Positions 14,345 to 19,975 of a stretch of 32,290 nt of DNA are shown here, piece by piece. A program made the translations under genes and the position numbers. This stretch comes from an uncultured Bacteroidales bacterium (GTDB lineage: Bacteria > Bacteroidota > Bacteroidia > Bacteroidales > FEN-979): positions 1 through 32,290 of the forward strand of contig CAIYQH010000620.1 of assembly GCA_903928285.1 (NCBI GenBank), given 5' to 3'. The notes below the pieces were generated by a model. That model made no database searches. It had not been told where the DNA came from and saw only the letters and a program-made list of their open reading frames with translations. How positions within the stretch are numbered: the stretch's first letter is position 1; every line of letters starts with the position of its first letter.

Positions 14345-14824
14345 ATGCGAAATCTTGAATTTCAACAGTTTTTACCTGTCACGCCTGCGGAGGCCTGGAA
14401 GTTTTTCAGCAATCCCGCCAATCTTGGCAGGATCACCCCCAAAGCGATGAACTTTATGATATGGTCGAAAATGCCCGAAAATATCTACCCGGGACTGATT
14501 ATCAGGTACACCGTTTCACCCATGTTCCATATTCCCCTGAACTGGGTCACCGAGATAACCCATGTACGGGAACCCTTTTGCTTTGTAGATGAACAGCGTT
14601 CGGGACCCTATGCGATATGGCATCATGAGCATCATTTTGAAGAGGTGCCCGGCGGGGTGATGATGACCGACAAATTGTTCTATAAGGTCCCCTTCGGGCC
14701 GATCGGCAAACTGGCCGACCTGTTGTTCGTACACCGGAAGGTGGAGGGGATTTTCAGTTACCGCAGCCGTATTCTGGAAAACGGGTTAATCGATGTTATC
14801 CAGCAGCCAGCGCTCCATGATTGA
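14345..14824 (+). CDS. SRPBCC-superfamily (START/cyclase-dehydrase-like) small protein
   Basis: The size (159 aa) and sequence style ([23 protein letters not shown]...[12 protein letters not shown]) resemble SRPBCC ligand-binding proteins. The assignment is from pattern memory only. Confidence 0.55.
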
Positions 14825-17068
14825 AAAAAGCTCGCCGGGCCGGATGGGTTTTGAAATATAGTCGTTCATGCCCGCAATGATGCACTTCTCGCGGTCGCCC
14901 TTCATGGCATTGGCAGTCATGGCAACAATAGGCAGGGTCTCCATTTTTAATTTTTCCCGGATCTCCCTGGTAGCAGTCATGCCATCCATCTTGGGCATCT
15001 GTACATCCATCAGCACCAGGTCGTAAGCCCTGTTTTTAACCGCTGCCACCACCTCCAGCCCGTCAGCCACCACATCCACGGTAATATTGGTTTTTTTAAT
15101 CATCGCGGTAATGACCCGTTGGTTAATGATGTTGTCTTCGGCAAGCAGGATACGGGTTGTATCGGGAAGAGATTGCAACCGTGTCAGGTTGGAAAATGCC
15201 TGTTTTATCTCCTTCTTTTCATCCGTTGAACCGGTTCCGTCCATCAGAGCGACAATGCTATCGAACAATACCAGTTGCTTTACCGGTTTGGTGAGATAGG
15301 CAATGTTACCGAGTTGCTGGAAGATCTTCTTTTCGCCCCATGCCCCAACCGATGTAAGCACAATGGCAGGAATCTGGCTGGTTTTTCGTACCTCCCTGAG
15401 AAAGTCATAGCCATTCATCTCGGGCATCAGGAAATCGGAAATGACCATTTGGTAAGCGCCCTCAGCATCCGATTGAAGAGCCTGCAATGCCTCTTTGGCC
15501 GTAGAATAGACATCGGCAACGAAGCCAAAACTCTTCAGAATTTCATATAATACGACCCTGTTTGTTTTGTTGTCGTCAACGGCAAGGATCTTTAATCCGA
15601 ATATTTTATCCGGAACGCTTAATTTTGTCTCTGCAGATTTGGCAGAGGCCTTAAAACGGGAGGTGAAACAGAATGTGCTTCCTTTTCCTGCCGAACTGAT
15701 CACCCAGATTTTGCCTGACATCAGGGAGACAAGATTTTTACAGATGGTTAGTCCCAAACCGGTCCCTCCGAATTTCCGGGTGGTCGAGGTGTCGGCTTGT
15801 GAAAAACTGTCGAAAATGGCCTCCTGCCTTTCATGCGGAATCCCGATCCCGGTATCCTGAATAGAAAAAAGTAATTCAATCTCAGTTTCACCCAGGGGTT
15901 TGTTGAAGGGAACATTAGCGGAATTGTTCTGTACGGTGATGTTGATTTCACCGGTATCGGTAAATTTCATGGCGTTGCTGACCAGGTTGATTACCACCTG
16001 GCGTAAACGCATCGGGTCGCCCACCAGGAAGGTGGGTACATCATTCCGGATAAGCACATTTAATTCAAGTCCCTTGTCCTCGACCTTTTGGATGACCACA
16101 TCGGAAACCGCTTCGATGATTTCGTGGAGGTTGAAGTCAATTTCTTCGAGTTCCAGCTGTCCGGCCTCGATTTTTGAAAAGTCGAGGATGTCGTTCAGCA
16201 GGCTCAGCAGCACATCTGCACTGTCCTTGGCCATTTTCAGAAACTGGTATTGTTCAGAATTCAATTCCGATCCCAAAACAAGGTCGAGCATGCCAAGGAT
16301 GCCATTCATGGGCGTGCGGATTTCGTGGCTCATATTGGCCAGGAATTCGCTTTTGGCCCTGTTGGCCTGTTCTGCTTCTGATTTTGCCTTTTCAAGGGCA
16401 GAAGCGTTGTCCTGAAGTTCACGGTTCAGGGCGACGACCCCGCGGTTGGTCTCTTCAAGCTCATGGTTGATGGATTCTATCTGGTTGTTTCGTTCCTGGA
16501 TCTGTTTGAGGAGAAAAATAAGTTCACTGTTTTGTGAATTGATGGTGTCGACCATACTGGCATCACCCCGTTCGATTGTTTTCTGAAAAGCGTTGTGGAT
16601 CGCGGTCAGCCGGTCATGTTCGAGCCGGAGTGAAAAACGTGGCAGCCATTTGGCGGTGGTTATGGTTGTCCCCATCCCGGGTTGCGACACGATGTTAAAA
16701 TCGTCCATCAGGCGCTGGGAACCCATCAGCCCAACGCCCATGCCTGTTTTCGAACGGTAATTGCCCGATTCGATCGATTCCAGGTCGGCGATTCCGGGGC
16801 CATTATCTGTGAAAAGGATCACCACCCCATCAGAGGCCTCCTTTCTGACGGCGATGGAAAACGCCACCTGCCCGCCCTGGGCATGTTCAATGATATTGCG
16901 GGTTAGTTCCGAAACGGCTGTCCCTATCCTGATGCAGGTGGTTTTATCGAACTGCAGCTCAGAGGCGAGCAACGAAGCAAGGTTCCGGGAACGAACCACG
17001 TCGGATTCGAACTGCACCTGGATTTCGCCGATCTTATATAGCGTAGCGGATGATAAGAACGGTAGCAT
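14786..17068 (-). CDS. Hybrid sensor histidine kinase with N-terminal RsbT/RsbW-like (HATPase_c_2-type) domain, coiled coil, HisKA, HATPase_c and two receiver domains
   Basis: The N-terminal domain has [25 protein letters not shown] and [11 protein letters not shown] (about residues 14-142). The H-box is [11 protein letters not shown] (His248), the N-box [11 protein letters not shown]1 DTGIGI and G2 [12 protein letters not shown]1 is ILAVDDN...[11 protein letters not shown] (Asp545) and REC2 is ILLAEDN...[11 protein letters not shown] (Asp688). Confidence 0.9.
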
Positions 17069-18095
17069 CGTCGTTGGGTCTTGAAAATTGATTGTTGATA
17101 TATTCAGCGCATTTTTGAGGATGTCCGGTCCAGTCTATATCGTCTATTTTCCATCGGGTTGTGATCCCGTCGGAATACATACAGGTGATGTCGCCGGGTT
17201 TGAAATCAAATTCAAAGACCCTTGGCGTACGCATATTATGGCCCATGATACCTCCGAACGACATCAGGTTTTTTTTGCCATCCGGCGAGAAGATAAACCC
17301 TTCGATGTTACCGATGCCCGACCAGGTAAGCTTCCGGCCCTCAGTATCGATACGCATCAGTCCGATGGTCGAACCCCGGGTGCCCTGAAGCGAGTTGTGC
17401 ACGTGATGCATCAGGGTGCCTACAGGAAGTTCCGACTTCAGGATGATTTGTTCACGGGCCAGTTGTGATGCCAGGTTTGCCTCACCGCCGTGACCAAGGC
17501 CGTCGATAACGGCTGCAACGCTCAGATCCGGCCCTAGGTGTGTCACCACATAGCTGTCGCCGTTCAGTATCTCTCCTGGTTTGCTTCGTGAAACTGCACC
17601 GATTTCCAGCCGTTTATTTGTCCCCAACCAGTATTTGTTCGGCAGATATTTCAAGGTGCGGACACAGTTTTTGAAATGGGGATACCCTGAGAAAAAGGCA
17701 GTTTTGAAATCGTGGGTCATTGATGGATTGATCTCCATCTCATCCGAGAACCGGCGAATGGAGCCCATCCCGATACCCAGGGATGCTTTCCCGGTATATC
17801 CGTCCTTTAAAACCTTCTGGAAATCACCGATTCCTTCACCCGAGTCGCAACACCAGACCTCTATCCCCTTATGGTTTTGTCCGTCTGTAAAATGACAGAT
17901 CACCAGGAAGCCTGTACCCCCGCCATGTCGGATAACGTTAGTTACCAGTTCAGTAACCATGATGGCAACCTCCCCGGTTTTCACATCGTCGAACCCCATC
18001 TGGGCAGCGAGACTCACGGCTTTTCTCCGGCAGATGCCTACATCGGAATCGTTTTCAATCTGCAGGCTGAGGATATTTTTGCGGGTTATTTCCAT
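17034..18095 (-). CDS. RsbT/RsbW-like kinase domain fused to PP2C (SpoIIE-type) serine phosphatase domain
   Basis: The N-terminus has [23 protein letters not shown] and [10 protein letters not shown]. The C-terminus has NGDSYVV...[13 protein letters not shown] and CMYSDGIT, which are PP2C/SpoIIE signatures. It overlaps the upstream gene by 10 nt and the downstream gene by 35 nt. Confidence 0.85.
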
Positions 18096-18926: not shown

Positions 18927-19607
18927 TTAGTCGTTTGGGAGAGCAATGGCACCCAAGGCCCTGATCTCGTCGTCGCGTTTGTTTTGCTTCATGGCAAAGA
19001 TCATGGCATCCTGCAGCGTGGCTTTCGTCCTGATGGCCGATAAATCAATACCCAGATGAACGATGGTTTGTGCAATGGCAGGGCTTATCCCTGAAATGAT
19101 ACACTCTGCCCCAAGCAGCCGTGCCGCAGTGACGGTTTTTAACAGGTGGTTGGCCACCTGGGTATCGACCGTCGGAACGCCGGTAATGTCAAGGATGGAG
19201 ATCGTACAACCGGTTTCCACGATTTTTTGCAGGAGGTTTTCCATCATTACCTGTGTACGCTGGCTGTCGAGGGTCCCGATTACAGGAAGGATCAGGATAT
19301 TGTCCCAGACTTTACTGACAGGGCTCGACAGTTCAAGCAGGTCTTCCTGTTGCTGCAAAATGGTCTTTTGCTGCTCCTGGATCTTCGACAACTTGCTTTC
19401 CAGCTCTTGCTGCATCTTTTCGCGCTTACGTAATTCATCGGTCAGGTCATTGATAAGCAGGTCAATGGCAGCCTCAATTCCGCTGAAATCATCTTCAGTT
19501 TCAGAACCGATGCGGGCATCCATATCGCCGGCGGCTACCGAAGCAAGAATGTCCTCAACCCGGGTGATCCGGTCTTTCATGTTTGTGATGTTGAATAGTT
19601 CGCTCAT
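18927..19607 (-). CDS. RsbR-like protein: short coiled-coil N-terminal region + C-terminal STAS domain
   Basis: The C-terminus has ILILPVIGTLDSQR...ISILDITGVPTVDTQVANHL, with a Thr in the conserved VDT phospho-acceptor position. The N-terminal 100 aa or so are charged and heptad-like (ELRKREKMQQELESKLSKIQEQQKTILQQQEDL). Confidence 0.8.
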   Translation of the reverse strand: MSELFNITNMKDRITRVEDILASVAAGDMDARIGSETEDDFSGIEAAIDLLINDLTDELRKREKMQQELESKLSKIQEQQKTILQQQEDLLELSSPVSKVWDNILILPVIGTLDSQRTQVMMENLLQKIVETGCTISILDITGVPTVDTQVANHLLKTVTAARLLGAECIISGISPAIAQTIVHLGIDLSAIRTKATLQDAMIFAMKQNKRDDEIRALGAIALPND

Positions 19608-19609
19608 GG

Positions 19610-19975
19610 TTATTTTCTCCTTTTTTCAATCCATTGGTACGCTTCATCGAAATCTTTGAAAAAATCTGATTCGGCCTTCAGTGAACCGAGTTTCATCAAT
19701 ACCTTCGCGATCATCCGCCCGGCAGCATTGGCACCGACATAGGCCACATCGGTAATCCGGGCCTGGTTCAGCATGTCGTTTGATATCGTACGTGTTTCGC
19801 GGCTTTCCATATTTCTCCCTTCGCGAAGATCGACAACGATTTGCCGGTAAGGTTTTCCTTCCAGCATCTCGATGTATTTTTTACCGAAATAGAGCGTTTC
19901 CGCTGTCGAAAAATCTCCTTTGATTTGCAGATGAAGAAGCTGATGTTCTTCATCATACCAGATTTTATGTTCCAT
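19610..19975 (-). CDS. Small SpoIIAA/STAS-like protein (tentative)
   Basis: The protein is 121 aa and lies 2 nt upstream of the RsbR-like gene. The pattern HLQIKGDFS...RQIVVDLREG...VAYVGANAAGRMI...FFKDFDEAYQWI resembles STAS/SpoIIAA-like small proteins. The assignment is from pattern only. Confidence 0.5.
   Translation of the reverse strand: MEHKIWYDEEHQLLHLQIKGDFSTAETLYFGKKYIEMLEGKPYRQIVVDLREGRNMESRETRTISNDMLNQARITDVAYVGANAAGRMIAKVLMKLGSLKAESDFFKDFDEAYQWIEKRRK

Follow-up and report, generated by a model that had tools for sequence, protein, structure and literature searches.

Stressosomes occur far beyond Firmicutes, and modules encoding RsbR, RsbS, RsbT and RsbX (RSTX modules) followed by two-component genes were reportedly described by Pané-Farré in 2005. 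Effectors that bear an RsbU_N domain and are controlled by free RsbT are said to have been treated by Quin in 2012. In the characterized systems, unphosphorylated RsbS and RsbR hold RsbT, which upon stress phosphorylates both and is released, and RsbX resets the scaffold (PMC9237108). Released RsbT binds the N-domain of RsbU and rigidifies its coiled-coil linker, which renders RsbU active, and the same logic at the linker has been put forward for GGDEF proteins and for histidine kinases that bear RsbU_N (PMC12143880). How stressosomes signal without RsbU or sigma-B, and what senses the stress, are open questions in the field. Here we describe a six-gene stressosome-type operon on a 32,290-nucleotide (nt) contig from an uncultured Bacteroidales bacterium (GTDB FEN-979; assembly GCA_903928285.1, contig CAIYQH010000620.1; this whole stretch is referred to below as the window), in which an RsbX-type phosphatase and a hybrid histidine kinase each carry an N-terminal RsbT paralog.

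An RSTX module followed by two-component genes is a known arrangement (Heinz 2022, PMC9237108), and Bacteroidetes are listed among RSTX carriers. Most stressosomes without a sigma factor have a downstream kinase that lacks RsbU_N, the coupling to which was explicitly left open, and an interaction between RsbT and VvD1 of Vibrio vulnificus could not be detected (Heinz 2022, PMC9237108). Bacillus subtilis without stressosomes still mounts a stress-inducible, RsbT-dependent response, and RsbT may itself be the sensor (Khadka 2025, PMC11821858).

The operon has in common with the RsbR-RsbS-RsbT and RsbX systems of B. subtilis and Listeria two STAS proteins (the RsbR type with a double Thr, the RsbS type with a Ser), an RsbT-type kinase encoded directly downstream and an RsbX-type PP2C phosphatase. 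It differs from them in having no RsbU, RsbV, RsbW or sigma-B and a hybrid histidine kinase as output, in the position of RsbX directly after RsbT with an N-terminal RsbT paralog that canonical RsbX does not have, in the helical rather than globin RsbR N-terminus of 95 amino acids (aa), and in an extra small STAS gene upstream. In the described RsbRST(X) stressosome, RsbR and RsbS assemble into a pseudo-icosahedral complex with a mass of about 1.8 MDa, in which RsbT is sequestered.

The V. vulnificus RsbRSTX system with VvD1 and VvD2 likewise has no sigma factor and has two-component genes within a few bases (PMC9237108), but its RsbX is a single-domain PP2C, its RsbR is a haem globin and VvD1 has a PAS domain and neither an RsbT-like nor an RsbU_N domain, whereas both downstream proteins of our operon carry RsbT paralogs. 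The RsbU_N effectors (RsbU, the Moorella GGDEF protein MtG and proteobacterial histidine kinases; Baral/Bradshaw 2025, PMC12143880) also combine an effector, a coiled-coil linker and an RsbT-type protein whose gene accompanies those of R and S; here, in contrast, RsbU_N is absent and the RsbT-type domain lies covalently upstream of a different conserved linker helix. The SpoIIAB-SpoIIAA and RsbW-RsbV switches, which provide the best structural matches, share the GHKL fold, the N, G1 and G2 boxes, an equivalent of Arg20 and the fold of the STAS partner, but in the present case no sigma client was found, the domains are nearer RsbT than SpoIIAB and two of them have an enzyme fused to them. Mycobacterium tuberculosis Rv1364c (PAS-PP2C-anti-sigma kinase-STAS; PMC12143880) similarly holds a PP2C and a GHKL anti-sigma-type kinase in one polypeptide, but the domain order is reversed, and Rv1364c has fused PAS and STAS domains, sigma-factor control and no R-S-T context. 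No description of an RsbT paralog fused to RsbX or to a kinase, of the three-clade phylogeny reported below or of the conserved linker was found in the literature searched, which left out the 2005 Pané-Farré survey, so that a prior account is possible.

A six-gene operon with the composition of an RSTX module

The operon spans positions 19975-14786 on the minus strand and consists of six co-directional genes spaced, in operon order, by +2, +15, +10, -10 and -35 nt (negative values are overlaps). A first-pass annotation of this DNA, made from the letters and a list of open reading frames (ORFs), had described the same six genes with these gaps and overlaps, which are exact in the ORF list, and its domain calls for the six proteins agree with Pfam or, for the first protein, with the predicted fold.

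The first gene (19610-19975) encodes a small single-domain protein of 121 aa, p121, whose Pfam matches to SpoIIAA-like and DUF7793 lie about 1 bit under the cut-offs. An AlphaFold2 (AF2) model of p121 (predicted local distance difference test score, pLDDT, 89.9) has the element order beta-beta-alpha-beta-alpha-beta-alpha-beta-alpha, which is the STAS order, and a Foldseek search against the PDB returned SpoIIAA (1thn_B, E 1e-5) as the best match and RsbS (6jhk) at a template modelling (TM) score of 0.70. The predicted fold of p121 is that of a STAS domain, as the label 'STAS-like' had implied. In the 48 related loci compared for this protein (the loci are described below), Thr61, Arg59 and Arg62 are nearly invariant. 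The p121 gene is tandemly duplicated upstream of the R gene in five Paludibacter-type loci (L019, L020, L024, L025, L031).

The second gene (18927-19607) encodes R, an RsbR-like co-antagonist of 226 aa (Pfam STAS, 1.4e-15) with a 95-aa helical or coiled-coil N-terminal region (19323-19607) and a C-terminal STAS domain (19005-19316); the linker and STAS portion matches the RsbR paralog family YtvA_fam of NCBIfam (3.6e-22). Its acceptor residues, Thr149 in a VDT motif (19161-19169) and Thr181 in an AQT motif (19065-19073), are equivalent to T171 and T205 of B. subtilis RsbR. R proteins outside Bacteroidota are 300-340 aa long. A HAMP identity was considered for the N-terminal region and dropped, the matches being weak (HAMP_2, E 0.037; McpB_HAMP, E 0.074). 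S (18522-18911, 129 aa; Pfam STAS, 1.6e-8) is an RsbS-like single-STAS antagonist whose Ser61, in a VDS motif (18729-18737), corresponds to the conserved Ser acceptor (S59) of RsbS-type proteins. The VDT and DS acceptor motifs singled out by the first-pass annotation are general features of these proteins: Thr149 and Thr181 of R are kept in at least 90% of 78 relatives, and the DS motif of S in at least 90% of 79.

T (18086-18511, 141 aa; HATPase_c_2, 8e-11) is a stand-alone RsbT-like Ser/Thr switch kinase of the GHKL type with the N-box SELFRN (18338-18355), the G1 box DSGPGI (18236-18253) and the G2 box GMGYGL (18173-18190). The gene that overlaps it by 10 nt (17034-18095) encodes X, a 353-aa protein in which an RsbT-like domain (X_N, 17721-18095; HATPase_c_2 at residues 21-124, 2e-9; boxes TELVTN, DSGEGI and SLGIGM) is fused to an RsbX-type PP2C domain (17037-17618; SpoIIE/PP2C at residues 194-350, 1e-13) with the metal-binding motifs DGLGHG, YSDGI and NDDATV. 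The best PDB sequence matches of the PP2C half are MtX, a Moorella RsbX homolog (3zt9, 1e-15), and B. subtilis RsbX (3w40, 3e-10). The same Pfam pair is present in all 120 listed of 501 homologous clusters, where the homologs are nearly all full-length at about 350 aa except for two shortened entries of 321 aa. NCBI names the fusion 'ATP-binding SpoIIE family protein phosphatase'; the fused domain pairs are already visible in annotation, which does not address their meaning.

The last gene (14786-17068) encodes HK, a hybrid histidine kinase of 760 aa. According to Pfam, an RsbT-like domain (HK_N, 16634-17068; HATPase_c_2 at residues 30-137, 1e-12) and a linker helix (16358-16633) precede HisKA (16160-16357; 6.7e-21), HATPase_c (15659-16021; 1e-42) and two copies of Response_reg (3e-46), REC1 (15251-15592) and REC2 (14819-15151). 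The catalytic motifs are present, namely His248 in SHEIRTP (16310-16330), DTGIGI, GGTGLGL, Asp545 of REC1 and Asp688 of REC2, and both receivers are intact.

Because STAS, STAS, HATPase_c_2 and PP2C domains occur in the canonical R-S-T-X order with conserved acceptors, and because the PP2C is nearest MtX and RsbX, the module has every feature of an RSTX module that can be tested from its sequence. The RsbU_N-coupling feature and the features of a sigma-factor partner switch are absent; RsbU_N (PF08673) had no match at E <= 0.01 in any of the six proteins. We consider it very probable that the system is an RSTX-type module with a two-component output.

The cassette is conserved across phyla

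Relatives were collected from either end of the fused pair. A scan anchored on the phosphatase, with the X-fusion alignment as query against one genome per GTDB species, gave at least 366 relatives, the best 80 loci of which were fetched and their ORFs classed by the domain segments of the window. The full order p121-R-S-T-(T::PP2C)-(T::HK) was found in 40 of these best 80, all Bacteroidota-type (Draconibacterium, Maribellus, Paludibacter, Tangfeifania and Lentimicrobiaceae, with one each binned as Desulfobacteraceae and Cytophagia), and across these 40 the median T/X spacing is -10 nt. The closest fetched locus belongs to a metagenome-assembled genome (MAG) of an uncultured Bacteroidales bacterium, with 81% identity in the phosphatase. 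A T::HK gene directly follows T::PP2C in 58 of the best 80 loci, in the core order R-S-T-(T::PP2C)-(T::HK), and these extend to Acidobacteriota (Blastocatellia, Pyrinomonadaceae), Candidatus Manganitrophaceae (Nitrospirota) and Betaproteobacteria (Piscinibacter/Ideonella sakaiensis, Burkholderiales). A plain kinase follows T::PP2C in a Promethearchaeota MAG, a cyanobacterium, Nitrospinota and Myxococcota.

The second scan was anchored on the kinase, with an alignment of the HK N-terminus and linker against metagenome contigs, and gave at least 540 relatives, 80 of which were fetched. Where at least 3.3 kb of upstream sequence was available (40 fetched loci), two STAS genes, a free T gene and T::PP2C lay immediately upstream of T::HK in 39. 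The 58 of 80 phosphatase-anchored and 39 of 40 kinase-anchored loci show that the linkage is essentially obligate in both directions. Chance is excluded as an explanation because of the domain E-values and because the gene order is kept in more than 90 independent loci. The cassette is widespread, and its age is no less than that of the phyla in which it occurs. The gene-order check proposed in the first-pass annotation thus came out in its favor; the grafting of an RsbT fold onto both the PP2C and the kinase that it had described is real, but it is not a local oddity.

The Promethearchaeota MAG (L045, JABCSY010000026.1) places the order R-S-T-(T::PP2C)-HK-REC in an Asgard-archaeon bin. This occurrence could be due to horizontal transfer or to a binning artefact.

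We also searched for the T::HK family among proteins at large, using HK residues 1-161 in an exhaustive comparison with 1.84 billion 50%-identity representatives (E <= 1e-3). This gave 4870 matches, and 64 of the best 150 are at least 400 aa long, with the domain nearly always N-terminal. In these 64, Pfam recognized HisKA in 55, HisKA_2/HWE in 4, REC in 39, Hpt in 2, GGDEF in 1 and HD in 1. A word-indexed search with the same residues yielded short proteins only, shortened orthologs first and then stand-alone proteins of about 135 aa that JGI names 'serine/threonine-protein kinase RsbT', and the fusions came from the exhaustive search. Other RsbT-like architectures also occur among the representatives (P0323, P0332, P0340, P0341, P0315, P0373), including proteins of about 215-275 aa in which 90-150 aa of unassigned sequence precede a C-terminal RsbT-like domain, a protein with two HATPase_c_2 domains in tandem and a reversed PP2C::RsbT-like fusion.

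Three RsbT-like domains form separate clades

Within the window, T and HK_N are 37% identical, T and X_N 28% and X_N and HK_N 25%. All three kinase-like domains match SpoIIAB-type models of NCBIfam below the trusted cut-offs. Against stand-alone proteins that JGI names RsbT, the domains T, HK_N and X_N scored 121, 107 and 67 bits within a small local database, and against Geobacillus stearothermophilus SpoIIAB they scored 19, 26 and 17 bits, the outgroup in this comparison being one SpoIIAB with no RsbW. By these scores all three domains are RsbT-type and not SpoIIAB-type, and the earlier count of three RsbT-type copies, two of them N-terminal fusions, is borne out by Pfam, by the matches to JGI-named RsbT and by the bit scores. 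Free T had no match at E <= 0.01 in a phmmer search of PDB sequences. A profile of the three copies with RsbT homologs found SpoIIAB (1e-13) and RsbW (1e-6) as the best solved relatives, and a Foldseek comparison of the AF2 model of HK 1-330 with the PDB gave SpoIIAB (TM 0.77) and RsbW (TM 0.80-0.87), both from STAS complexes.

A neighbor-joining tree of 210 RsbT-like domains from the 80 phosphatase-anchored loci resolved three near-pure clades, T (76/81), X_N (68/71) and HK_N (58/58), each spanning phyla, and the T of the window falls in the first; the few exceptions come from loci with atypical domain calls or gene order. Since the clades are near-pure and cross phyla, the triplication is ancient, the copies are orthologous across phyla and none substitutes for another. 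The free T gene stands beside both fusions in nearly all loci. Across the same 210 domains, the N-box E..N, the G1 box DxGxGI and the G2 box GxGxG are kept at 90% or more within each clade across phyla. An invariant Arg in all three (R28 of T, R28 of HK, R23 of X) aligns with SpoIIAB Arg20. From the SpoIIAB-SpoIIAA and SpoIIAB-sigma-F structures, we take Arg20 to be the docking residue for both the STAS antagonist and the sigma factor. A terminal GT...KW beta-strand segment is retained in the T and HK_N clades and is missing from X_N.

A conserved helix joins the RsbT-like domain to the histidine kinase

Between the RsbT-like domain and the H-box, HK carries the motif QNxEL..L.E.....L..N.ELE.TN[RK]GV.AL..EL (16415-16534, residues 179-218). 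This motif was found in 41 ORFs of the related loci, comprising 39 RsbT-like::HK proteins (loci L001-L043) and 2 GAF-PP2C proteins of Actinoallomurus, and in 27 of the 64 long representatives. The motif string had no match in the literature searched. The Actinoallomurus proteins (L064, 9198-11279; L078, 9436-11157) are encoded after R-S-T-T::PP2C and consist of an N-terminal region, the motif helix, GAF and PP2C, with no fused RsbT-like domain.

In the AF2 model of HK 1-330, a GHKL domain (1-141) and a short helix (151-166) are followed by one unbroken helix (170-265) that carries both the linker motif and His248, and then by the second helix of the dimerization and histidine phosphotransfer (DHp) domain (271-301). 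HK_N itself was modelled with high confidence, and the 1-330 monomer as a whole has a predicted TM score (pTM) of 0.54. As modelled, this layout is geometrically that of a signalling helix feeding into a histidine kinase.

A proposed mechanism and its alternatives

Starting from what is established above, namely the domain identities, the conservation of residues for catalysis, phospho-acceptance and docking, the connecting helix and the obligate genetic linkage, we propose that this RSTX module has a His-Asp phosphorelay output rather than a sigma factor, and that the RsbT paralogs on the phosphatase and the histidine kinase serve as docking or input domains. The R and S STAS proteins would form a phosphorylatable scaffold, with free T as the switch kinase and the PP2C domain of X as an RsbX-type reset phosphatase. 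Each RsbT-like domain would dock on an unphosphorylated STAS partner in the manner of RsbT and SpoIIAB, this partner being the RsbS/RsbR core or, in Bacteroidota, p121. Docking of X would tether its PP2C domain to the phospho-STAS substrates, and binding or release of HK_N would act through the conserved continuous helix on the His248 helix and thereby start or stop autophosphorylation. In this way a phosphorelay passing through the two receivers to a partner encoded elsewhere would be gated by the Ser/Thr phosphorylation state of the scaffold. Assembly of the scaffold, the pairing of STAS proteins with RsbT copies and the sign of regulation are what we infer in this scheme. Competition or exchange of RsbT-type domains at a STAS scaffold, which the first-pass annotation had suggested, may operate; all three copies keep their ATP boxes and the docking Arg.

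Taken as a whole, we regard this explanation as evenly balanced between right and wrong. That the fused RsbT-like domain is a coupling device is the more probable of its parts specific to the fusions, and we lean towards it; the particular docking-and-release scheme is offered tentatively. Several observations weigh against the proposal. The 95-aa helical N-terminus of R has no recognized sensor domain in the domain search, and no HPt protein or output regulator was found in the cassette of the window or in the related cassettes scanned. X_N, without the last strand segment, may not act like RsbT. Judging from the Actinoallomurus proteins, the helix may not transmit passively but may be acted on by RsbT in trans. 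In p121 the residue at the canonical phosphorylation site, the position of SpoIIAA Ser58, is Ser58 here; over 48 loci it is Ser in 16 and Asn in 31, and the family was confined to Bacteroidota-type loci among those fetched and was absent elsewhere. Since most relatives have Asn at the canonical site and the family is so confined, p121 cannot be what the fused domains pair with in general; its contribution may be an input specific to the lineage.

The alternative that survives best makes the RsbT-like domain itself a sensor/effector module, that is, a covalent RsbT-effector complex that packs in cis on the linker helix of its own kinase and activates it, while the STAS scaffold, by sequestering the domain, does no more than buffer or time the response. 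This would fit with the RsbT-dependent stress-inducible response that B. subtilis keeps without a stressosome (PMC11821858) and with the way RsbT acts, which is to make a coiled-coil linker rigid (PMC12143880). The linker motif equals the RsbT-like domain in conservation, and it occurs without a fused domain in PP2C proteins encoded after R-S-T-T::PP2C, as expected of an RsbT-binding element. However, there is no RsbU_N-like domain, and the pTM of the HK 1-330 monomer is only 0.54. We consider this alternative unlikely, and it overlaps with our proposal rather than excluding it. The three that follow are less likely than this one.

The fused domains could instead be receptors for free RsbT, binding it by heterodimerization and replacing the RsbU_N docking domain. 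SpoIIAB and RsbW are dimeric in the best-matching structures and the three paralogs always co-occur, both in keeping with such pairing, but full ATP boxes and the STAS-docking Arg, which pure docking would not need, are kept in all clades, and we judge the idea improbable.

A conventional partner switch, in which one or more RsbT-like domains are anti-sigma factors for a sigma factor encoded elsewhere, p121 is an RsbV-like antagonist and HK is an unrelated co-transcribed product, is slightly more improbable still. The best structural matches are indeed SpoIIAB-SpoIIAA and RsbW-RsbV complexes, and on a contig of only 32 kb a distant sigma factor is possible. Yet the window has no sigma factor and none was seen beside the cassette in those related loci whose neighboring genes were scanned, the domains are RsbT-type and not SpoIIAB-type, the three kinase copies persist outside Bacteroidota-type loci, where p121 is absent, and 39 of 40 loci show T::HK linked to R-S-T-X. 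It is very improbable that the fused copies have decayed into pseudo-kinases that play no part in signalling. X_N does diverge most, with 25-28% identity to T and HK_N, and has no C-terminal strand segment, but the catalytic boxes are at least 90% conserved within each clade across phyla, the architecture and overlap lengths are fixed and HK_N gave a high-confidence AF2 model.

A bolder version of our proposal treats the RsbT fold as a portable plug. Both a histidine kinase and its own reset phosphatase would be gated directly, either by a stressosome-type STAS scaffold or by the RsbT domain in the role of primary stress sensor; the three non-redundant paralogs would be competitors for phosphorylatable STAS sites or would differ in their release from them; and the conserved helix QNxEL...ELExTNRGVxAL..EL would turn the state of the RsbT domain into effector activity. 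We find this version rather doubtful. If true, it would establish a major class of converters of Ser/Thr into His/Asp signals, one that spans phyla, and would answer how sigma-less stressosomes signal. With an output kinase and a reset phosphatase that each carry an RsbT paralog, both open questions of the field become testable, with HK autophosphorylation in the presence and absence of the scaffold as the readout, and cultured carriers of the cassette include Piscinibacter (Ideonella) sakaiensis, Maribellus and Draconibacterium. Our proposed module would be a natural Ser/Thr phospho-switch feeding directly into a His-Asp relay. Its value lies in a concrete and testable answer on sigma-less stressosome signalling, from a cassette that is widespread rather than exotic.

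The output side of the cassette

Pfam analysis of the other 19 large ORFs of the 32-kb window found no sigma factor, no RsbV/RsbW or STAS/anti-sigma pair, no histidine phosphotransfer (HPt) protein and no DNA-binding response regulator, as the first-pass annotation had stated; the only regulator is a TetR protein. These ORFs encode ATP-binding cassette (ABC)/FtsX transporters, a prolyl oligopeptidase, pyrroloquinoline quinone (PQQ) propellers, NuoE/F-like oxidoreductases, TetR and an ADP-forming acyl-CoA synthetase/GNAT. Related loci with scanned neighbors likewise had no sigma factor beside the cassette, and no cassette examined contained a DNA-binding or enzymatic output domain. A weak RsbU_N-PAS-GAF-GGDEF-EAL protein is encoded in one related locus, which has a single-domain RsbX (L075).

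In many relatives T::HK has one receiver and the next gene encodes REC-(PAS)-HisKA-HATPase(-REC) or REC only (L012, L014, L015, L019, L022, L023, L030, L042; L083-L160), whereas in the HK of the window a second REC is fused. The one-receiver T::HK followed by a REC-kinase gene suggests a multi-tier kinase relay. Other parts of the genome may encode an HPt component and a terminal response regulator. Genes that follow the kinase were considered as outputs and rejected; the Mur ligases of Acidobacteria and, after the REC-HK gene, the Memo-AMMECR1 protein of Draconibacterium and Maribellus are unrelated neighbors.

Surroundings of the operon and other features of the window

The intergenic region upstream of the operon (19976-20118) contains a terminator-like hairpin (20061-20042) that ends the prolyl-oligopeptidase gene, and about 65 nt beyond it, in which the operon promoter must sit. 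The scan that reported the hairpin covered sigma-70 promoters and terminators, and its yield did not exceed chance; for promoters it found 6 candidates with 6.9 expected, the model not being one of Bacteroidota promoters, and no promoter was assigned. Rfam and tRNA scans of the whole window were empty.

The 3' end of the HK gene overlaps convergently by 39 nt with an ORF of 159 aa on the plus strand (14345-14824) that has weak SRPBCC/polyketide-cyclase-like matches (E 0.03-0.09). The operon region is flanked by two separate FtsX/MacB-type ABC systems (10325-14334 and 23708-27656), one with an unusually long FtsX-family permease (1101 aa) and the other with two MacB-like permeases, a LolA-like protein and the adjacent TetR regulator. 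Further away (3829-7819), a 785-aa fusion of NuoE-like and NuoF-like parts (2Fe-2S thioredoxin-like, flavin mononucleotide and 4Fe-4S) is overlapped by 20 nt by the gene downstream, which encodes a 550-aa GltD/DPD-like Fe-S flavoprotein, and this pair has a PQQ/BamB-like beta-propeller gene on each side. The local G+C content reaches 0.605 at 30001-31000, against about 0.50 for the window, inside a minus-strand ORF (29097-31781) that encodes an 894-aa ADP-forming acyl-CoA synthetase/ATP-grasp/GNAT (Pat-like) protein.

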